IMG/VR virus record: IMGVR_UViG_3300010279_000462
Length of the DNA stretch: 64,000 bases
Reading direction: 5' to 3' (one strand)
Source of the DNA: a virus
Lineage: Duplodnaviria > Heunggongvirae > Uroviricota > Caudoviricetes
Both the position numbers and the translations under genes were made by a program. The number at the start of each line of letters is the position of its first letter. The stretch's first letter is position 1. The notes beneath the pieces were generated by a model that was not told the DNA's origin, ran no database searches, and saw nothing but the letters and a program-made list of their open reading frames with translations. Below are positions 3,717 to 63,781 of the stretch, one piece after another.

Positions 3717-5089
3717 AGTTCATTCCGCATGATTACCAAAGCTACTGCACGGAGTACATCAAGACACACCCCGTCGCAGCTCTTTTTCTCGACATGGGAC
3801 TTGGCAAAACGGTCATTACTCTGACTGCCATCCAAGACCTCATGCTGGACACATTCGAGGTCAACAAGGTGCTGATCATTGCGCCGCTTCGTGTTGCCCG
3901 CGACACATGGCCGGCAGAAATTGAGAAGTGGGACCATCTGAAAAATCTGGACATTTCAATCGTCGTAGGCGATGTGAAGACACGCATTGCCGCTGTCCAT
4001 CACCCGGCCATGATCTATGTGGTCAACCGGGAAAATGTCAAATGGCTGGTGGAGTACTACGAGAAAAACGGGATGCGCTGGGACTTCAGCATGGTGGTCA
4101 TCGACGAGCTTTCGTCCTTCAAAAATTATCAGTCCCAGCGGTTCAAGTATCTGCGGAAAGTCCGACCCTTTGTGAAACGCTGGGTCGGGCTGACCGGCAC
4201 ACCGTCCTCCAACGGACTTATGGATCTCTGGGCCGAGATAGGAATTTTGGACGGTGGAGAGCGTTTGGGAAAGTTTATCGGTCGTTACCGTGAAGCCTAT
4301 TTCAAGGCATCGTCCATGAATCCGGCCAATGGTATCGTGTTCCAGTATAAGCCCAGAGAGGGAGCCGAGGAGCTAATCTACCAGAGAATCTCGGACATCA
4401 CCATTTCTATGAAGGCTCTGGACTACCTGCATATGCCGGACTGCATCCCGACCCGGTATGAGGTGGAGATGAACACGGAGGAGCGCAAGCTCTACGATAT
4501 GCTCAAGCAGGACCTTCTCATCCCGCTGAAGGATGGCGACATAGACGCTGCCAACGCTGCATCACTGACTGGAAAATTGTTGCAGATGAGCAATGGAGCT
4601 GTCTACGATGAGAACGGCAAAGCGAGAGTTCTGCATGACCACAAGCTGGAAGCTCTGGAGGACCTGATCGAAGCCGCCAATGGTCAGTCCGTTCTGGTGG
4701 CCTACTGGTTTAAGCATGACCGCCAGCGTATTATCGACCACCTGACAAAGCTGAAGATCCCGGTGAGGGACATCAAGACGAGCGAGGACATCAGGGACTG
4801 GAACGCCGGGAATGTCCCGGTCGCCCTGATCCATCCTGCCTCTGCCGGCCACGGTCTGAACATCCAGCAGGGCGGACACATCCTGATCTGGTTCGGGCTG
4901 ACATGGAGCCTCGAACTGTATCAGCAGACCAACGCCCGGCTTTGGCGACAGGGACAGACACAGGTGGTCACCATCCACCACATCATCACCAAGGACACGG
5001 TGGACGAGGATGTCATGGCCGCCCTTGAGCAGAAAGACATGACACAGGAGAAGCTGATTTCCGCCGTCAAAGCACGGCTGGAGGAATAG
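3713..5089 (+). CDS. SNF2-family DEAD/DEAH helicase
   Basis: Walker A DMGLGKT and DEAH-like VIDELSS are present. A C-terminal helicase domain is present. The VRR-NUC plus SNF2 pairing is common in phages. Confidence 0.85.
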   Translation: MKFIPHDYQSYCTEYIKTHPVAALFLDMGLGKTVITLTAIQDLMLDTFEVNKVLIIAPLRVARDTWPAEIEKWDHLKNLDISIVVGDVKTRIAAVHHPAMIYVVNRENVKWLVEYYEKNGMRWDFSMVVIDELSSFKNYQSQRFKYLRKVRPFVKRWVGLTGTPSSNGLMDLWAEIGILDGGERLGKFIGRYREAYFKASSMNPANGIVFQYKPREGAEELIYQRISDITISMKALDYLHMPDCIPTRYEVEMNTEERKLYDMLKQDLLIPLKDGDIDAANAASLTGKLLQMSNGAVYDENGKARVLHDHKLEALEDLIEAANGQSVLVAYWFKHDRQRIIDHLTKLKIPVRDIKTSEDIRDWNAGNVPVALIHPASAGHGLNIQQGGHILIWFGLTWSLELYQQTNARLWRQGQTQVVTIHHIITKDTVDEDVMAALEQKDMTQEKLISAVKARLEE

Positions 5090-15086: not shown

Positions 15087-15849
15087 TGCAAAATGTGTCC
15101 TCATCCACGATAACTTCCAGAACTTCAAGTCCTACAACATCCCCAAGGCACAGCTGGTGATCGCCGACATTCCGTACAACATCGGAACGGACTTCTACGC
15201 CAGCCGGCCGGACTGGTATGTGGGCGGGGACAACAAGAACGGCGAGAGCAATAAGGCACGGAAGGCGGCGTTCAATACCGACTTCACCTTCAACATCGCA
15301 GAGTACTTCCACTTCTGCAACCGGCTGCTGAAGAAGGAGCCGGCAACAGGAGAGAAGGGTGCGCCCTGTATGATCGTGTTCTGCGCGTTCCAGCAGATTC
15401 CGAAGGTCATCACCGAAGCGGAGAAGTACGGCTTCAAGAACTACATCCCGCTGACCTTCTGCAAGAACTACAGTCCGCAGGTCTTGAAGGCCAACATGAA
15501 GATCGTGGGTGCAACGGAGTATGCGCTGGTGCTGTACCGCAGCAAGCTTCCGAAGTTCCGCAACCTCGGCGAAGACGGCAAGCCCCACATGATCTTCAAC
15601 TGGTTCGACTGGAAGCGGGACGGCAAGGACTATCCGAAGATCCATCCTTCCCAGAAGCCAGTGTCCGTGCTGAAACGCCTGATTGAGATCTTCACCGACC
15701 CCGGCGATGTGGTCATTGACCCCTGCGCCGGAAGTGGCTCGACCCTTCGTGCTGCAAGAGAGCTGGGGCGGGATAGCTACGGATTTGAAGTGTCTAGAGA
15801 TTTCTACCTGAAAGCCAGGGAGCAGATGCTCGGAGAGGAGGCCGTATGA
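15079..15849 (+). CDS. DNA amino-methyltransferase (beta class)
   Basis: DIPYN motif IV and DPCAGSGSTL motif I. ATGGCTGA overlap with the upstream gene. Confidence 0.8.
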   Translation: MADAKCVLIHDNFQNFKSYNIPKAQLVIADIPYNIGTDFYASRPDWYVGGDNKNGESNKARKAAFNTDFTFNIAEYFHFCNRLLKKEPATGEKGAPCMIVFCAFQQIPKVITEAEKYGFKNYIPLTFCKNYSPQVLKANMKIVGATEYALVLYRSKLPKFRNLGEDGKPHMIFNWFDWKRDGKDYPKIHPSQKPVSVLKRLIEIFTDPGDVVIDPCAGSGSTLRAARELGRDSYGFEVSRDFYLKAREQMLGEEAV

Positions 15850-18047
15850 GCAAGGAACAGAATATGACGCTGACCCTCGGAAGTCTGTTTTCAGGCTCCG
15901 GGGGTTTTGAATTGGGAGGGCTTCTTACCAATCAAATCGTGCCGGTATTCAATTCGGAGATTGAACCATTTGCCATCCGGGTCACGACCAAGCGTCTGCC
16001 GGAGGTCAAGCATTACGGAGATGTGTCTGCCCTGAACGGTGCAGACCTGCCACCTGTGGACATCATCACCTTTGGCAGTCCTTGTCAGGATATGTCCATT
16101 GCTGGCAAGCGAGATGGTCTGGATGGTTCACGGTCCAGCCTGTTCTATGAAGCAATCCGAATCGTGAAGGAAATGAGGTGTAAGACCAATGGAGCAAAAC
16201 CAAGATTTATCGTGTGGGAGAATGTGCCGGGCGCCTTCTCCTCCAACAAAGGACAAGACTTCAAGGCAGTCCTCGAAGCCGTCATCGGTGTTAAAGAACC
16301 GTCCGCCGAGGTGCCTGCGCCTGATAAAAAAGGCTGGCCCGACGCTGACTACTATCTGGGAGACGGATGGAGCGTCGCGTATCGAGTTCTTGATGCGCAG
16401 TGGTGGGGCGTGCCCCAACGCCGAAAACGCATCTACCTTGTCGCAGATTTTACAGACCACAGTGCCCCCAAAGTACTATTTGAGTCCGACGGCCTGTCTG
16501 GGTATTCTGCGGAGAGCTTCCGTGCGTGGCAAAGAGCTGCCGCCTGTGCTGAAGACAGCACTGGAACGGCAGGCGGCTGCGGAAGAATCTGCCTGAACGA
16601 CCAAGGCGGGGCGCAGATGGATGTGTCCGAAGAAGTGACCGGGACACTCCGTGCGCAGGAGCATGGGCATCAGCCCTGCGTCCTTGAAGCGGCTGGTTTC
16701 TGTACGGAACACTCCGCCAATGCCAGAAGCATCGGGTACGAGGAAGAACGGTCGCCTACACTCCGGGCCGGCGTTGTGCCAGCCGCCATTGCACTGGAAA
16801 ATCATCCGACCGACAGCCGGGTGAAGATTTCCAAGGATGGCATGGTGCAGACGCTGACCAGCCGGTGCGGCACGGGCGGTGGGAACGTTCCTCTGATCAT
16901 GGATGGCGCGGAGAATCCTCCAGCGGTCACCTTGAAGATCCGTTCCGGGTGCGAGGGTGGCGGCAAGGGAGCCATCTGGCAGGAGGACAAGTCCGCCACT
17001 CTTGGCTGTAATAACGACCAGACAGTTTTCGTGCCGAAGTGCTACGGTGTCTGCTCGAAAGCCAGCCATTCCATGATGAGCGACAATCCGCACAGCGGCT
17101 TCTATGAAGCCAGCACTTCCCGGACGCTGGATTGCAGCGGCGGTGACCCGACCTGTAATCAGGGTGGGCTGTGTATCTGCGAACCTGTTGTCTGCGTGGA
17201 TCAGGGCGGCGGCAAGTCCAACTGTACGGTAGACGAACAGGTTGCACCGCCGCTCGCCTGTACCCATGGAGGTTCACCGGCTGTGGCATTCACGCAGAAC
17301 CAGCGGGATGAAGTCAGAGATCTGGGCGAGAAAGCCGGCTCCCTGTCCGCACAGCCGGGAATGAAGCAGCAGACCTTCGTGGCGCAGCCGGAGGATGTGA
17401 CCGCGTTCCATGTGAACCAACGCAATGAACTCATTGACCTGCACGGAAAGTCCGGCGCGCTCATGGCGACCCGGAGCGACCAGATGCAGACCTTCGTGCT
17501 GCAGGGCAGCATGATCGGGCGCAGTGATGAGAACGGTCCGCAGGGGGATGGCATCAATGAGGATGTCTGCTTCACCCTGGATGCCACTGACCGTCACGCT
17601 GTTTGCGCTTCCAAGGATGTGTACGCTATGACCACCGGCTCCTTCATGAAGGTGGAGGAGAATGTGTCTCCAACCCTTATGGCGAGGGACTATAAAGACC
17701 CGACCACCATCGCGCCGGTGCCGCAGGATATCAGCTACACGGTCCGCCGCCTGACCCCGACCGAGTGTGCCCGGCTGCAGGGCTTTCCGGATTGGTGGTG
17801 CAGTGACCTCGAAACCGAGAATCCCACGGAAGCGGATATGGCTTTCTGGCAGGATGTGTTTGAAACGCACCGCAGACTTGTGACCCATGCCAAGAAGCCG
17901 AAAACGGAGAAGCAGATCCGCAAATGGCTGGCTGACCCGTATTCGGATGCGGCAGAGTATAAGCTCTGGGGCAACGGCGTTTCTTTGCCCATAGTTTTTT
18001 TCGTTCTAAGTGGCATCGTATGGGCAGCAAATAAGGATTTTTGTTAA
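15846..18047 (+). CDS. DNA (cytosine-5)-methyltransferase with a very large variable region (733 aa)
   Basis: Motifs FSGSGGF (I), GSPCQDMS (IV), ENVPG (VI), TECARLQGFPDWW (IX) and GNGVSLP (X) are present. The final ~24 codons are supplied by the RIT left inverted repeat. Confidence 0.85.
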   Translation: MSKEQNMTLTLGSLFSGSGGFELGGLLTNQIVPVFNSEIEPFAIRVTTKRLPEVKHYGDVSALNGADLPPVDIITFGSPCQDMSIAGKRDGLDGSRSSLFYEAIRIVKEMRCKTNGAKPRFIVWENVPGAFSSNKGQDFKAVLEAVIGVKEPSAEVPAPDKKGWPDADYYLGDGWSVAYRVLDAQWWGVPQRRKRIYLVADFTDHSAPKVLFESDGLSGYSAESFRAWQRAAACAEDSTGTAGGCGRICLNDQGGAQMDVSEEVTGTLRAQEHGHQPCVLEAAGFCTEHSANARSIGYEEERSPTLRAGVVPAAIALENHPTDSRVKISKDGMVQTLTSRCGTGGGNVPLIMDGAENPPAVTLKIRSGCEGGGKGAIWQEDKSATLGCNNDQTVFVPKCYGVCSKASHSMMSDNPHSGFYEASTSRTLDCSGGDPTCNQGGLCICEPVVCVDQGGGKSNCTVDEQVAPPLACTHGGSPAVAFTQNQRDEVRDLGEKAGSLSAQPGMKQQTFVAQPEDVTAFHVNQRNELIDLHGKSGALMATRSDQMQTFVLQGSMIGRSDENGPQGDGINEDVCFTLDATDRHAVCASKDVYAMTTGSFMKVEENVSPTLMARDYKDPTTIAPVPQDISYTVRRLTPTECARLQGFPDWWCSDLETENPTEADMAFWQDVFETHRRLVTHAKKPKTEKQIRKWLADPYSDAAEYKLWGNGVSLPIVFFVLSGIVWAANKDFC

Positions 18048-18064
18048 ATTATGAGCCGATAAAA
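17976..18064 (+). repeat. RIT left terminal inverted repeat
   Basis: 17979-18004 is the exact reverse complement of 21601-21626. Imperfect similarity continues inward to about 18064. Confidence 0.7.
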
Positions 18065-18098
18065 TTCCATGATACCAACCTTTTATGATAGCTGAAAA

Positions 18099-18130
18099 GC
18101 CGGTAAAAGTAAGACCTTACTTTTACCGGC
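18099..18130 (+). promoter_or_regulatory. perfect 15-bp-arm palindrome in the ritA leader, followed by TGTATAAT
   Basis: GCCGGTAAAAGTAAG-AC-CTTACTTTTACCGGC. TATAAT lies 8 bp downstream. Confidence 0.4.
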
Positions 18131-18183
18131 TCAGCCTGTATAATGATGTTAGTACCGAACATACAGATTAAAGGTGAGGCATA

Positions 18184-19443
18184 ATGGACAATTTTCTAAC
18201 TGAGACTTCTTCAGCGAAAGTTAAAGACACTCCTACAACTTATACCGTAAAGTCCTTGGTAGAGGACGCAACGACATTTCTTCAATCCAGGGGTGACTAC
18301 CGTGACCGCGTAGTGAACTATATCAAGGGAACATGGCATCAATTTGAAAATTACTGCGAAACCAATAGCATTTTATTCTACCAGTCTGAATACAGTAACA
18401 GATTCATTGAAAGCCTTTCTATTGGTTTACAGCCTCTCAAACCGGAAACCATTAAGCGTAAGGTGGGCAATCTTAAAATGCTCGACCTGTACGCAAAAAA
18501 TGGCACATGGGAGAAGGATGCATTAGATTCCAAACCTAACCTTGAAGCGGAATTTTCTGAATTCATCGCAGCACAGGATGAGTTCTTAAAAACACGTCAC
18601 TATTCGAAATTTTCTTGTGAAACCATTTGTAAACAGACAACAGCTGTACTGAATTATCTTCAGAATAATGAAATCACCAGTTTCTCGGAAATCACTAGTG
18701 ATATCATTTCTGACTATGCTATTTCACTGAAGGGTCATGCAAAAAGTACTATGCGCTGTGAACTCAGCCGAATTAGACAGATTTTGCATAATGCCTACCT
18801 TCTAAAGTATACCGCTGATGATTTGTCCACTTACGTCCCAACGTACAATCTTGGCCAACCCCAAAGCAATGTTAAAATATGGCATTCTAGCGAGATAAAC
18901 AGAGTTCTGTCTGCGGTGGATCGGTCAAATCCTAAAGGTTTGCGGGATGCCGCTTATATCACCATTGCAGCAGAACTTGGGATGCGAAGTAAGGACATTA
19001 CTGACCTTAAGCTTTCGGATATTGATTGGGAAACTTGCACTATCTCGTTTGTCCAGAGCAAAACCGGGAAAGTCAATCCCCTTCCGCTTAATGAAAAAAT
19101 TGGCCGCGCCATTATTGACTATCTGAAAGTCAGACCCGATACGGATTGTGAATACCTATTTGTGAATATGAATCCTCCGTATGGCAAAATGAAGTCGTTC
19201 AATTCATCATTTAACAAGTATGTCAGCCGCTCCGGAGTCACTATTCCTGTTAATGCTCACCATAATCTTCACTCGCTCCGGGCTACCGTTGCGACCAAAC
19301 TTTTGAAAGAGGGCGTATCTCCTGACGATATCGTTTCTTTTCTGGGGCATTCCGACAGGGAGTCGCTTCACAACTATATCCGTATGGATATAGACAGCCT
19401 CCGAAATTGTGCATTGTCTTTTGAGAATGGTGAGTTTGTATGA
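18184..19443 (+). CDS. ritA: tyrosine recombinase RitA-like
   Basis: 419 aa. RBS AGGTGAGG. Motifs HSLRAT...LGHSD...LHNY (R-H-R-Y). Confidence 0.8.
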   Translation: MDNFLTETSSAKVKDTPTTYTVKSLVEDATTFLQSRGDYRDRVVNYIKGTWHQFENYCETNSILFYQSEYSNRFIESLSIGLQPLKPETIKRKVGNLKMLDLYAKNGTWEKDALDSKPNLEAEFSEFIAAQDEFLKTRHYSKFSCETICKQTTAVLNYLQNNEITSFSEITSDIISDYAISLKGHAKSTMRCELSRIRQILHNAYLLKYTADDLSTYVPTYNLGQPQSNVKIWHSSEINRVLSAVDRSNPKGLRDAAYITIAAELGMRSKDITDLKLSDIDWETCTISFVQSKTGKVNPLPLNEKIGRAIIDYLKVRPDTDCEYLFVNMNPPYGKMKSFNSSFNKYVSRSGVTIPVNAHHNLHSLRATVATKLLKEGVSPDDIVSFLGHSDRESLHNYIRMDIDSLRNCALSFENGEFV

Positions 19444-20420
19444 TGCGGGTTTACAAATACACAAGTGGACTATCCACACAGATACAATCCTTTATAGAGG
19501 AAAAGCGTGCTCTTGGATGCAAGTATGAAAAGGAGGCCAAAGTCTTTTATGAAATGGACAGATTTCTAGTTAGGGAAGGAGTTGTTGAGCCAATCCTCAC
19601 TCAGAATGTGGTTGAAAAATGGGTAGAGAAGCGTCCCAACGAGAAAAGAAAAAATCAACGTTGGCGACTAAATTTTACCAAGCGTTTTGTAGCTTATCTT
19701 CTGCTTCACCACTATGAAGCGTATTATCCTGAATACAAAATTTCCTCAAGCGATGACAAATGCTTCGTGCCATACATTTTCACAAACACGGAAATTGGCG
19801 ACCTTATTGCATATTTTAATACCATGAAGCCAAGTAGACAGTATCCTAATGGCCATATCGTACTTCCCTTACTGTTTCTAACACTTATATGCTGTGGGTT
19901 GCGGTCTGGTGAAGTTGCATCGCTTACAGTTAATGATGTTGATATTAAAAACGGCATTCTCACAATCAGAAATGCCAAGCACGGGAAAAGTCGCAGTATT
20001 CCTATTTCTGAAAGTATGTGCCTCAAATATGCTGAATACTATGATTTACTCCATACTAACAGCGACGGTAAGGATTATTTCTTCCCGAATGCACGTGGCA
20101 ACTGTCATCACACCAATGAAATCGAACGCAGATTTAAGGAGGCGCTATGGAACTGCGGCATTCCTTATAAAGGACGCGGTTATGGTCCTAGAGTCCATGA
20201 TCTTCGCCATACTTTTGCAGTTCGCGCCATGCAGAAGATTCGGAAGGAAAAAGGAAGTAATCTTATGGCACTTCCATATCTGTCAGTCTATTTAGGGCAC
20301 TACAACATGAACAAAACACAGCAATATTTGCACCTTGTTGTGGATGCATATCCAGAATTAATTGAGAAGCAGCAAGATTACCTTGGCGAAACAATACCAG
20401 TATGGGAGGTTTCAGAATGA
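19440..20420 (+). CDS. ritB: tyrosine recombinase RitB-like
   Basis: 326 aa. ATGA overlap with ritA. Motifs RHTFAVRA...LGHYNMNKTQQY. Confidence 0.8.
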   Translation: MMRVYKYTSGLSTQIQSFIEEKRALGCKYEKEAKVFYEMDRFLVREGVVEPILTQNVVEKWVEKRPNEKRKNQRWRLNFTKRFVAYLLLHHYEAYYPEYKISSSDDKCFVPYIFTNTEIGDLIAYFNTMKPSRQYPNGHIVLPLLFLTLICCGLRSGEVASLTVNDVDIKNGILTIRNAKHGKSRSIPISESMCLKYAEYYDLLHTNSDGKDYFFPNARGNCHHTNEIERRFKEALWNCGIPYKGRGYGPRVHDLRHTFAVRAMQKIRKEKGSNLMALPYLSVYLGHYNMNKTQQYLHLVVDAYPELIEKQQDYLGETIPVWEVSE

Positions 20421-21436
20421 GAACACCGGACTTTTCAAAATACTTAACGATGTTCCTTGAACACTATCTTCCAGAACTTAAGAATGCCAGCGAGAATACC
20501 TTGGCAACATACAGCGACACTTTCTGCTATTTTCTAACTTATTGTCAGGATGTGGAAGCAATGAAAATTGAGCGAATGTCGGTCAGTGATTTCACTGCGG
20601 AACTTGTTGAAAGATACCTGCACTGGATGGAAACAAGCCAAGGCAATAGTCTTGCAACTCGGAATAACCGACTGGCTACAATCCATTCTTTCGTTAGATT
20701 TTTGCAGCCCAGGGAACCAAAACTGCTACTCAACTTTCAGAAGATTCTTGCAATTCCAACAAAGAAAGCACCACAAAAAACTGTGCAGCCTCTCTCAAAG
20801 GAATCTGTCGCTGTACTACTTCGTCAGCCAGACACATCTACTCTCAAGGGAAGAAGGGATGCAACTGTTCTATGCGTGTTGTATGATACGGCTGCTCGTG
20901 TATCGGAAATCTGCAATCTCCGCATAGAGGATGTGCGGTTTGAGAATCCTCCGCATATTCGCATAATGGGAAAAGGAATGAAAGTGCGTACAGTTCCTAT
21001 TTTGCCAGCGACAGCTATAAACTTAAAAAGCTACCTTATAGAAACGCATCGATTAAAGCCTGAGTGCTATCACTTGCCTCTTTTCGTTAACCGTGATGGA
21101 GAACCCTTTACACGGTCCGGAATCAGGTATATTTTAAACAAATACGTCAAAATGGCCCATGAAATAGATCCATCTATTCCCGAAAGTCTTAATCCCCATC
21201 GTATCAGACATACCAAGGCAATGCATCTATATGAGGCGGTTGATGACCTTATCGATGTCCGTGATTTTCTCGGCCATGCTGATATAAAAACTACAAGTAT
21301 CTACGCTAGATCCAGTCTTGCCAAAAAGAGGAAGGCACAAGAGAAGATTTCGAATTCTCCTGTGCCTGAGATGGCATCTTGGCAACAGGATAAAGGCACA
21401 CTCGAATGGCTTAAAAACTATGGGCGCAAGAAATAG
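20417..21436 (+). CDS. ritC: tyrosine recombinase RitC-like
   Basis: About 339 aa. RBS GGGAGG 7 nt upstream. ATGA overlap with ritB. Motifs HRIRHTKAM...LGHADIKTTSIY. Confidence 0.8.
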   Translation: MRTPDFSKYLTMFLEHYLPELKNASENTLATYSDTFCYFLTYCQDVEAMKIERMSVSDFTAELVERYLHWMETSQGNSLATRNNRLATIHSFVRFLQPREPKLLLNFQKILAIPTKKAPQKTVQPLSKESVAVLLRQPDTSTLKGRRDATVLCVLYDTAARVSEICNLRIEDVRFENPPHIRIMGKGMKVRTVPILPATAINLKSYLIETHRLKPECYHLPLFVNRDGEPFTRSGIRYILNKYVKMAHEIDPSIPESLNPHRIRHTKAMHLYEAVDDLIDVRDFLGHADIKTTSIYARSSLAKKRKAQEKISNSPVPEMASWQQDKGTLEWLKNYGRKK

Positions 21437-21540
21437 CAACGGAGCCCCAAATTATAGCAGGCAGATCAGGATAATTCTTGATCTGCTTTTTTATTGGTAT
21501 ACACCATTACCTATTTGATACTGACTGTAAGGGAGGCGGA

Positions 21541-21629
21541 TTTTATTGGCTTATTTTCTATGACAAATCTTTATTATATGCCCAAACTATTCCAGATAAG
21601 ACGAAAAAAACTATGGGCAAAGAAACACC
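21541..21629 (+). repeat. RIT right terminal inverted repeat
   Basis: Reverse complement aligns with 17976-18064. The outer 26 bp are exact and the inner part is imperfect. Confidence 0.7.
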
Positions 21630-21651
21630 ATTATCGGTTGCAATACATAAT

Positions 21652-21729
21652 GGCGTCGCACTGCCATGTGTCTATTTTGTGCTGGCCGGCATCGTGTGGG
21701 CGGCGCAGAATGCCGAGGAAACCCAATAA
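21652..21729 (+). pseudogene. displaced native 3' end of the C5-MTase gene (encodes GVALPCVYFVLAGIVWAAQNAEETQ*)
   Basis: About 70% nt identity to the element-borne MTase 3' end at 17976-18040. Its protein tail parallels GVSLPIVFFVLSGIVWAANKDFC*. Confidence 0.55.
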
Positions 21730-62698: not shown

Positions 62699-62784
62699 AC
62701 ATTTTGTCGGTATTGCTTCGATCTCGGCATTCTGTCAGGCAGATAATTTGTCGGTATTATGCCGATTTATCTTTGCGACAGAAC

Positions 62785-62813
62785 TTGCTATTCGGGTCCA
62801 TATGCGGCAATAT
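62785..62813 (+). promoter_or_regulatory. promoter cassette family copy TTGCTA-N17-CAATAT
   Basis: ACTTGCTATTCGGG...GGCAATATAC resembles the 27084 copy. Precedes the serine recombinase. Confidence 0.45.
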
Positions 62814-62839
62814 ACGACTACCAAAAGGAGGACAACACA

Positions 62840-63781
62840 ATGGAAGTGATGGTTGATCGCAAGCGGGCGGCGGCTTATTGCCGAGTCAGTACGGGAATGG
62901 AATGTCAGGAAGGTTCGTATGAAACCCAAATCAAGTACTACAAGGACCTGATCTCTAACGACCCGGATGAGGAACTGGTAAAAATCTATGCAGATGAGGG
63001 AAGCGGACGGAGTACGCAACGCCGGCCTGAGTTCCAGCAGATGATGCAGGACTGTGAGGATGGCAAGATCGATGTCATCTACACCAAGTCCATCTCCCGA
63101 TTCTCCCGAAATATGCTTGATTGTGTGACCGCAGTGCGTCGGCTGAAAGAGCTGGGCATTGCGGTCATTTTTGAACGGGAAAACATCAACACAATGGACC
63201 GCCAGAACGAACTGTTCTTCCACATCATGGCGATTATCGCTGAGGAAGAATCCAAGAGCATCGGCGGAAATGTAAAGCTCGCCATTGACCACTGCCATGA
63301 GGAAGGCAAGCCGACCGGGCGCGTGACTTATGGGTATCGCCGGGTAAACAACAAAGGCGAGTGGCGCATTGAGGAATCGGAGGCACGGCGCGTCCGTTGT
63401 GCCTTTGACCTTGCCGCCAAGGGCATCGGCTACGATGCTATCCGGAAGGAACTGGACGCGATGGAAAAGGCGGAAGGAACAGGCGTTTCATGGTCCCAAA
63501 ACCGCAACCGTGTTCCGATGCTGTTGAAGCACATCGCCTACACGGGGGACTACATCACGGACACCTACTATACGGCATACGGCAAAAACGGCCACCGATA
63601 CAGCAAGCGGAATAACGGGGAACGCGCCCAGACCTATCTGGAAGGTCATCATGAACCCATTGTCAGCAAGGAGCAGTTCGAGCGTGTCCAGACCCTGATG
63701 AGCATGGGACTGCTTCACTCTGGCAGGAAGAAGTACACGAAGGAACAGCAGGAGCTTCTAAACGATTCCAGCTGGCAGTAA
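62840..63781 (+). CDS. serine recombinase (resolvase plus recombinase domains)
   Basis: AAYCRVSTG with catalytic Ser. SRFSRN. Recombinase domain YGYRRVN. RBS AAAGGAGGA. Confidence 0.8.
   Translation: MEVMVDRKRAAAYCRVSTGMECQEGSYETQIKYYKDLISNDPDEELVKIYADEGSGRSTQRRPEFQQMMQDCEDGKIDVIYTKSISRFSRNMLDCVTAVRRLKELGIAVIFERENINTMDRQNELFFHIMAIIAEEESKSIGGNVKLAIDHCHEEGKPTGRVTYGYRRVNNKGEWRIEESEARRVRCAFDLAAKGIGYDAIRKELDAMEKAEGTGVSWSQNRNRVPMLLKHIAYTGDYITDTYYTAYGKNGHRYSKRNNGERAQTYLEGHHEPIVSKEQFERVQTLMSMGLLHSGRKKYTKEQQELLNDSSWQ

Follow-up and report, generated by a model that had tools for sequence, protein, structure and literature searches.

Recombinase-in-trio (RIT) elements have been known since 2009. The RITs of Cupriavidus, Burkholderia, and rhizobia carry ritA, ritB, and ritC in this order, with ATGA overlaps between the genes, in a unit of about 3.5 kb (PMC2864759, PMC3414803). 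The short overlaps have been named as a RIT trait (PMC2864759), and the ends are described as a 28–29-bp inverted repeat with an overlapping palindrome beside ritC (PMC3414803). Insertions in radC, IS66 tnpA, and Tn6049 tnpA were called inactivating (PMC2864759, PMC3414803), and the target specificity, empty site, movement, and mechanism of RITs are listed as not tested in Table 1 of a 2023 review (PMC10214605). Here, we analyzed a 64,000-nucleotide stretch of phage DNA (IMG/VR record IMGVR_UViG_3300010279_000462; hereafter, the window) in which a RIT of 3676 bp (17973–21648) is inserted in the 3′ end of a C5 cytosine DNA methyltransferase (methylase) gene. We consider it likely that this segment is an autonomous RIT and that its clade is specialized on the motif-X Asn-Gly/Ser-Val codons of C5 methylases in phages of gut Clostridia.

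The element is similar to the described RITs in gene order, protein sizes, ATGA overlaps, and unit length; its proteins match theirs type for type, and both share an inverted repeat with a palindrome on the ritC side and equally spaced ACATAA motifs. It differs from them in the length of its repeats (93 nt, compared with the 28–34 nt reported), which encode a target-like C-terminus in both arms, in its defined C5-methylase target motif, and in its hosts, which are phages of gut Clostridia. In the literature searched, which did not include the key 2013 RIT paper, neither methylase targeting nor coding repeats were described for RITs. What is added over known RITs is a defined target motif, natural substrates, Xer-like core sites, repeat-encoded replacement tails, and a miniature derivative.

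Anatomy of the Element

The insertion is set apart from the phage by its low GC content, which is about 0.41 within the element (0.38–0.45) and about 0.58 in the flanks (0.53–0.63), the drop coinciding with the element. These values agree with those of the first-pass annotation (about 40% and 58%), which was made from the sequence alone and had proposed a RIT at this locus. The features are as follows, with positions in the window.

15846–18047, + strand: chimeric C5 cytosine DNA methyltransferase open reading frame (ORF), 733 aa (PF00145, E = 4e-42; TIGR00675)
17973–18065, + strand: IRL, left terminal inverted repeat, 93 nt; core at 1–8 and CGATAA at 85–90 (the ACATAA of other clades)
17973–17980, + strand: left junction core AACGGCGT, encoding Asn-Gly-Val of motif X
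18098–18131: perfect 16+16-nt hairpin between IRL and ritA
18184–19443, + strand: ritA, 419 aa; two N-terminal four-helix core-binding domains in an AlphaFold2 (AF2) model
19440–20420, + strand: ritB, 326 aa; ATGA overlap with ritA
20417–21436, + strand: ritC, 339 aa; ATGA overlap with ritB; conserved C-terminal extension past the catalytic Tyr
21459–21488, + strand: terminator-like hairpin 3′ of ritC, 13-bp stem and T run
21540–21632, − strand: IRR, right terminal inverted repeat, 93 nt; minus-strand reading NGVSLPIVFFVLSGIVWAYNKDLS and stop
21633–21648: 16-nt spacer ATCGGTTGCAATACAT, part of the element and missing from empty sites
21649–21729, + strand: displaced native methylase tail NGVALPCVYFVLAGIVWAAQNAEETQ and stop, GC-rich like the phage, with core AATGGCGT at its start; detached from the gene

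According to the ORFs of the window, the repeats enclose three recombinase genes only and no cargo. The longest ORF for ritC (20402–21436) would give 344 aa; because the second gene junction is an ATGA overlap (20417–20420), as is the first (19440–19443), its start is most likely 20417, which gives 339 aa. All three proteins match Pfam Phage_integrase (E values 9e-26 to 1.4e-30), and their catalytic residues are invariant in the alignments (R254, H363, R366, H389, and Y398 in RitA; R155, R256, H257, H287, and Y296 in RitB; R151/152, H266, R269, H292, and Y301 in RitC). The same-strand genes of 419, 326, and about 339 aa, their overlaps at 19440 and 20417, and the R-H-R-Y motifs had all been recognized in the first-pass annotation. 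That annotation had also proposed terminal inverted repeats, of which the exact 26-nt core (17979–18004 against 21601–21626) was recovered, while the suggested length of about 89 bp gives way to 93 nt. IRL and IRR are 77% complementary, and a 22-nt arm pattern occurs twice in the window, once in each arm, and in none of 100 shuffles. A palindrome at 21625–21656 consists of the IRR core, the spacer, and the tail core. The hairpin at 18098–18131 could serve as a transcription stop behind the repaired methylase ORF.

Identity as a RIT

Types were assigned by pairwise protein matches to two reference trios, the literature-named PHG134/135/136 of plasmid pHG1 (PMC2864759) and a plasmid trio of Burkholderia sp. 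RPE67. Against pHG1, the like-for-like matches (A to PHG134, 7e-28; B to PHG135, 7e-35; C to PHG136, 2e-60) stand out from cross-type matches of 1e-10 or weaker, and the Burkholderia trio is matched in the same order (RitA 3e-45, RitB 6e-69, RitC 1e-100). A tblastn search of plasmids with RitA returned mainly Sinorhizobium, Rhizobium, Bradyrhizobium, Sphingobium, Paraburkholderia, and Ralstonia, which are the classic RIT hosts. The gene sizes (419, 326, and 339 aa) fit the RIT order A-B-C, for which about 410, 315, and 335 aa are expected.

Two sequential core-binding domains are known from the RitA subgroup, and an extra conserved C-terminal helix from RitC (PMC8138268). The AF2 model of the present RitA contains helix bundles at residues 22–106 and 122–206 before the catalytic domain, with a predicted local distance difference test (pLDDT) of about 85–94 (19-sequence alignment). 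An extension of about 40 aa past the catalytic Tyr of RitC (…KRKALEK…PSWQQ…L.WL) is, as judged by sequence alignment, common to the Burkholderia and pHG1 proteins. The described RIT end layout is present both in the window and in the Burkholderia copy, where ACATAA is found at +84 and a palindrome lies beside ritC. The RIT architecture proposed from the letters alone is therefore borne out by the type-for-type protein matches, the two modeled RitA core-binding domains, and the end layout; the three recombinases group as RitA, RitB, and RitC, and no repeat-free trio appeared in the related phages. The nearest named NCBIfam models are XerC, XerD, and XerA, all matched below their cut-offs, and by this measure all three proteins appear to be Xer-like simple tyrosine recombinases.

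We have high confidence that the window locus is a site-specific RIT insertion. Signs of mobility as a unit of about 3.5 kb include the empty site, identical RitA proteins in different phages and orientations, and many element-only contigs of about 3.65 kb, which suggest that the element may move as a whole.

Several other candidates were rejected. The Tn554 family and GInt/SE elements are likewise multi-recombinase, site-specific transposons without conventional target duplication. Tn554, however, has a TnpA of about 360 aa, a long TnpB of about 630 aa, a non-recombinase TnpC, and no terminal inverted repeats; it is ruled out by the three ordinary-size recombinases and the 93-nt inverted repeats. 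GInt/SE elements, with four conserved genes that include non-recombinases (GinD/Srap, Tfp) and with cargo (PMC10214605), are ruled out by the three recombinase genes standing alone between the repeats. A phage integration module, which would comprise one integrase (with or without Xis) next to attP and syntenic in related phages, is ruled out because the trio is missing from the closest phage relative and the phage has a separate serine recombinase, and the Gamma-mobile-trio because NCBIfam GmtY scores 21 bits against a cut-off of 340. The "three tyrosine recombinases" of Tyrovirus are unrelated, their genes being dispersed in 160-kb Bacillus phages (PMC9703825), and the "RIT" of a REP-sequence paper has another meaning, namely Rho-independent terminator.

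The Target Gene and Its Empty Site

The native methylase body extends to 17972 (…AEYKLWG), and both the last 24 codons of the chimeric ORF (17973–18044, NGVSLPIVFFVLSGIVWAANKDFC) and its stop codon (18045–18047) come from IRL. The uninterrupted homologues end in …YKLWGNGVALPCVYFVLAGIAWCAGLEE (locus L034) and …YKMWGNGVALPCVFFVLAGIAYYAFSD (L035), each followed by a stop. The displaced native tail of the window matches the C-terminus of L034, downstream of which the DNA is homologous as well.

L034 lies on the phage scaffold MT836278.1, which is collinear with the window on either flank. There, the intact gene ends in …AEYKLWGNGVALPCVYFVLAGIAWCAGLEE and a stop, and the empty-site DNA reads CTCTGGGGT-AACGGTGT-CGCACTTCCATGTGTG. 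The window splits this sequence into …CTCTGGGGC-AACGGCGT, followed by the left repeat, and, on its right side, the right repeat, the spacer ATCGGTTGCAATACAT, and AATGGCGT-CGCACTGCCATGTGTC…, which is the start of the native tail. A second empty site is found in L035. At this locus, the 8-nt core AAYGGNGT occurs three times: it marks the body junction, lies inverted in the right repeat, and begins the displaced tail. With its uninterrupted gene and collinear flanks, MT836278.1 confirms the earlier claim of an insertion in the 3′ end of a C5 methylase, and the comparison with related phages that the first-pass annotation had recommended recovered the empty site in both L034 and L035. The 16-nt spacer, the retained native tail, the coding repeats, and the two orientations go beyond that annotation.

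Target Specificity and Orientation among Relatives

A total of 122 element copies were gathered from genomes, viral contigs, metagenomes, and protein-indexed contigs, and in an automated census both flanks could be classified for 77 of them.

Methylase upstream of ritA: 24 of 77
Methylase converging on ritC: 26 of 77
Two tails: 7 of 77
Two methylase bodies: 7 of 77
Non-methylase flank: 13 of 77

Fifty of the 77 classified copies are located at the same codons, Asn-Gly/Ser-Val of motif X, with 24 in one orientation and 26 in the other. The motif-X site is the normal target of the element's clade, and the location is not the unusual one that had been supposed; earlier records also include RITs from Firmicutes and prophage-borne RitA-family proteins (PMC3414803). 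One RitA protein (P0072) was found, as an exact match, in both orientations in different phage contigs.

Every eye-read locus with a single methylase-body junction follows the rule "body / core-arm … arm-spacer-core-tail." In L010 and L025, spacer and tail flank both sides. On the body side, …(Y/R)K(L/M/A)(W/L)G continues in frame into a repeat starting with AAYGGNGT (in the GNSV clade, AAYAGYGT). At the opposite end, the repeat is followed by the 16-nt spacer AT-N12-AT, placed on this side in every relative, and by a GC-rich displaced tail with its own stop. In 20 tabulated elements, the same 8-mer class is present at each body junction, resident arm, and displaced tail.

Off-target copies occur at core-like sequences of other genes, including …TIG/NAV (L099) and a site in a relaxase-bearing island (L045–L049); given the 13 copies with a non-methylase flank, the specificity is strong and not absolute. 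Two tails were seen in L010, L025, L026, L058, L080, L129, and L132, and two bodies in L071, L100, L114, L117, L124, L125, and L134, where two different convergent methylase genes are each capped by one arm. These contigs represent either reciprocal recombination products between copies or metagenome mis-joins across the 3.5-kb repeat.

A few assemblies are of interest in their own right. In the isolate genomes of Flintibacter muris DSM 110149 (L012; NODE_94, coverage 434) and Vescimonas sanitatis MH37-1 (L014 and L022), the element is present either as a separate 3.5-kb contig of high coverage or on more than one scaffold. Such assemblies suggest that in cultured strains the element may be multi-copy or extrachromosomal. 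Contigs consisting wholly or nearly of the element were also binned with a Bacteroides sp. metagenome-assembled genome (MAG; L009) and a Methanocorpusculum sp. MAG (L019); binning error of a short repeat contig is more likely here than true hosts.

Terminal Repeats with Coding Capacity

Read inward, the left arm of the window encodes NGVSLPIVFFVLSGIVWAANKDFC and the right arm NGVSLPIVFFVLSGIVWAYNKDLS, each with a stop; these are peptides of about 24 codons that resemble the displaced native tail. Nine nucleotide differences separate the two arms within their first 18 codons, an AGT/TCT serine pair included, and none changes an amino acid; over 26 codons, the arms of L020 show eight nucleotide differences, all at third positions (p = 5.5e-7). 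Arm and native tail share 65% nucleotide and 79% amino acid identity, with 13 of 20 differences at third positions. The frame and a stop within 18–29 codons are kept in both arms of all clades. The arms carry the low GC of the element, unlike host DNA, and the insertion-bearing host methylase ORFs are still full-length (660–842 aa). Together, these patterns argue with moderate strength that whichever arm lies next to the gene may be under selection to provide a usable C-terminus.

Elements with a spare 3′ end for the target gene, which stays functional in these cases, are known among tRNA-gene-targeting phage and island integrases and in e14 or phage 21 in icd. They are the closest functional analogue: in these elements and in the present clade, a tyrosine recombinase inserts site-specifically at a gene 3′ end, a look-alike end is supplied, and the displaced end is kept. 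In contrast to their one replacement end, one orientation, and one integrase, the present clade has two ends, both orientations, and three recombinases.

An exact-match arm scan of viral contigs returned two loci only, a miniature copy and a solo arm-like tail. The miniature copy (L038 6282–6597, IMGVR_UViG_3300029760_000301) is 316 bp long and consists of two arms separated by 194 nt, plus the spacer. It lies at the canonical motif-X site, retains the native tail downstream, and lacks recombinase genes. It thus resembles miniature inverted-repeat transposable elements in its reduction to two arms and a spacer at the canonical target, and no report of a miniature RIT derivative was found in the literature searched. 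Its structure might reflect either activity in trans or decay, and it is a candidate for mobilization in trans. The solo tail is found in IMGVR_UViG_3300035505_000318 (L039, about 4985–5075), where a full-length methylase ends in NGVCLPIVFFVLSGIKWASSKDQELGKEE and a stop, with 21 nt identical to the repeat and no element after it. This tail is either a solo arm left by deletion or a methylase type ancestral to the arms.

Putative Recombination Sites and a Proposed Mechanism

Every arm of every clade has the core at 1–8, TTATGN at about 26–31 (TTTCGT in the window's clade), and, toward the end of the inverted repeat, ACATAA at 85–90 (CGATAA or CAATAA in the window's clade). An ACATAA with this spacing is also present in the Burkholderia RIT. 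The spacer letters that adjoin the core are ACAT, and the spacer-side sequence reads …ACATAA / YGGNGT / TTNTNT…. By analogy, this layout fits an Xer/dif core site, with a binding element, a 6-bp overlap YGGNGT, and an inverted binding element. Under this reading, AACGGCGT may be AA, the end of a recombinase-binding element, plus the overlap region CGGCGT, and the spacer may represent two outer recombinase-binding elements placed back to back. XerCD/dif and the dif-exploiting elements (integrative mobile elements exploiting Xer, IMEX; CTX phage) share the imperfect …CATAA, 6-bp overlap, TTAT… layout and Xer-like proteins. They differ from the present clade, which has its own three recombinases, a coding-motif target in place of dif, and two back-to-back core sites per junction. 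The three cores of otherwise identical elements vary at positions 3, 6, and 7 only, which locates the crossover no more precisely; all three positions belong to the proposed overlap, in keeping with strand exchange at that place.

The 3586-nt SPAdes contig L023, whose termini overlap by 55 nt, contains a donor-type junction, IRR-core-spacer-core-IRL, and L088 contains the same IRR-spacer-IRL junction. L051 and L052 carry the same element with the spacer in opposite directions relative to it, the reversed one being that of L051; L018 is likewise reversed with respect to L017. Whole-element flipping between the arms would leave the reversal seen in L051 and L018.

We infer from these features a route of transposition through a circular intermediate. 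RitA, RitB, and RitC would excise the element as a circle whose junction would consist of IRR, the 16-nt spacer, and IRL. Each side of this junction would be an Xer/dif-like core site, formed by an outer element ending in ACATAA (CGATAA here), the YGGNGT overlap as the presumed place of strand exchange, and the repeat start as inner element. Either core site would recombine with a look-alike …TGGGGN-AAYGGNGT-… in a methylase gene. Both orientations would arise because the donor junction has two inverted core sites, either of which is usable with the methylase half-site. After integration, the gene-adjacent repeat would extend the frame by about 24 codons, imitating the native C-terminal helix, and then close it with a stop; farther downstream would lie the spacer, flanked by the second repeat and the intact native tail. 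Since the native tail is intact there, excision could restore the gene exactly. The repeats would thus be recombination sites and spare exons at once, keeping the protective methylase full-length and lowering the cost of carriage. Our confidence in the detailed strand-exchange model is moderate to low.

A similar arrangement is found in Burkholderia sp. RPE67 plasmid p2 (L033 3700–3837 and 7327–7420), where a RIT is inserted in the catalytic-tyrosine motif of another tyrosine recombinase gene. The junction reads …LLGHRSLATTS/RYYRP and a stop, and the displaced tail, RYLKVATST…, is preceded by a palindromic spacer of 20 nt. The order of body, core, arm … arm, core, back-to-back spacer, core, and displaced tail is common to this locus and the window. 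Because this RIT in an integrase motif shows the same junction logic, the scheme might extend to RITs in general. The broader proposal has two parts: that RIT ends are dual-purpose, acting as an Xer-like site and as an interchangeable spare methylase exon, with insertion and probable flipping either way; and that a circular intermediate with two inverted core sites, targeting half-site mimics in conserved coding motifs, is perhaps the general RIT scheme. In our view this proposal is about evenly balanced between right and wrong. A general RIT transposition scheme of this kind may be so far undescribed.

Alternative Explanations

Several points weigh against an autonomous RIT clade that is specialized on motif X and carries coding repeats. 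Thirteen of the 77 classified copies have a non-methylase flank, and another 14 are two-tailed or two-bodied, by real rearrangement or mis-join. The right arm of the GNSV clade encodes a dissimilar 29-aa tail, the clades vary in the likeness of their arm peptides, and the synonymous pattern could in part be inherited from captured target DNA. That a repaired, arm-tailed methylase would be active is a prediction from its sequence, and the Xer/dif analogy is based on the sequence layout of the sites. The L023 contig may equally be a 3531-bp circle or a tandem array, which are indistinguishable, and the circle-type junctions belong to the GNSV clade, which is other than that of the window.

The repeats might resemble tails only because they match the recombinase target or are copies of past targets, in which case coding would be incidental, and the methylase would be effectively inactivated or would not depend on its tail. 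Tyrosine recombinases do need related sites in both partners, and the core varies per insertion, implying some exchange with the target sequence. Moreover, the second RIT family described below splits the same gene type at motif VI without repair, known RITs were described as inactivating radC and transposase genes (PMC2864759), and the GNSV-clade right-arm peptide is unlike the native tail. Against this, most arm–arm and arm–tail differences are synonymous, even across the AGT/TCT serine switch, the low GC of the arms is that of the element and not of the host, and frame and stop are preserved in both arms of all clades with the host ORFs intact. Since the identity of arm and native tail falls to 65% beyond the core, recombination apparently needs matching DNA over about 8 nt only. 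We therefore consider this account unlikely. A resident invertible switch, in which the methylase alternates between two C-termini by segment flipping as phase variation rather than transposition, would explain why both arms are coding and why the spacer is reversed between L051 and L052 and between L018 and L017, as is expected of in-place inversion. However, a change of specificity is not expected from two tails that are nearly identical and located outside the target-recognition region, and empty sites, off-target copies, the circle-type junction, and multi-copy, element-only contigs show movement. Such a switch is very improbable as an explanation of the locus, and inversion as a side reaction is compatible with an autonomous, motif-X-specialized RIT.

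As with integron attC sites or CTX phage, integration might proceed from a folded single strand, with a hairpin of the approximately 200-nt palindrome IRR-spacer-IRL and one strand exchange, resolved by replication. The IRR-spacer-IRL junction is indeed a long imperfect palindrome, mismatches within the 6-bp overlap are tolerated, and the Sphingobium RIT mobilome contained exonuclease-protected forms and no circle junction, for which hairpin intermediates were suggested (PMC5737581). The IRR-spacer-IRL junctions assembled in L023 and L088 are nevertheless of the double-strand type, the window arms are only 77% complementary, and the retained native tail suggests reversible conservative recombination, all of which makes a single-strand route improbable. 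That the trio is the phage's own integration or Xer-like dimer-resolution module seems scarcely credible: the below-cut-off XerC, XerD, and XerA models are the nearest named matches, as such a module would suggest, but the segment is missing from closely related phage DNA, lies 17 GC points under its flanks, is bounded by terminal inverted repeats, and occurs in both orientations and unrelated contexts, and a separate large serine recombinase (62759–63781) is encoded.

A Second RIT Family and an Overlapping Frame

A second RIT family, 30–40% identical, was found in a Pseudobacteroides cellulosolvens prophage (L036 5472–9320, the same as L020/L030), where the methylase is split at motif VI. The junctions read …RFIVWE/NVPYVLKFIRDIMSCKHL and a stop upstream, and …CTGATCAT/AACGTGCCGGGC, corresponding to NVPGAFSS…, downstream. 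The reading frame is unrepaired at this insertion, and a motif-X RIT is present in the 3′ end of the same gene. Methylase fragments in L022, L028, L051, and L053 have similar distant trios next to them. The left and right ends of this family were not definable as an inverted repeat; the L036 insertion alone is clear, and the L051 and L028 junctions are ambiguous.

Within the methylase ORF of the window (15846–18047), the +1 frame at 16189–16596 encodes a conserved peptide, KYYLSxxAxxGIxxRAxxRGKxLP. In at least 12 homologues, down to about 50% identity, the peptide lies inside an alternative ORF of 134–152 codons, and the main frame is open as well. The peptide was identified in L016, L029, L031, L034, L035, L038, L039, L041–L044, and L036/L020, and in the GNSV-type methylase of L022, this motif shares the frame of the C-terminal domain. 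It may represent conserved dual coding, a programmed frameshift, or an overlapping gene.

Phage Context

All 64 kb of the window are phage DNA, which encodes PolA, an SNF2 helicase, a D5 primase, an SAM synthetase, and two N6/N4 methylases, together with TerL, a portal protein, a tape measure protein, a lysin, and a large serine recombinase. Gut phages of Oscillospiraceae and Ruminococcus that belong to Ca. Heliusvirales resemble the window. The serine recombinase is located as follows.

62759–63781: large serine recombinase with Resolvase and Recombinase domains, at the window end

This recombinase is probably the phage's own integrase, distinct from the RIT.

Biological Significance

The present clade offers an empty target, both junctions, a circle-type junction, and a miniature donor, and for this reason the RIT mechanism becomes directly testable. 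C5 methylase genes occur in 67% of the genomes of Ca. Heliusvirales, a widespread order of gut phages (PMC11283538), and a single related RitA cluster comprises over 2000 sequences; on these grounds, the element can be counted among the common passengers of gut phages. It may also drive rearrangements between methylase loci and be a cause of broken assemblies. By targeting a conserved motif and carrying replacement coding sequence in both inverted repeats, the element would illustrate a route by which a transposon can lower its cost to the host.

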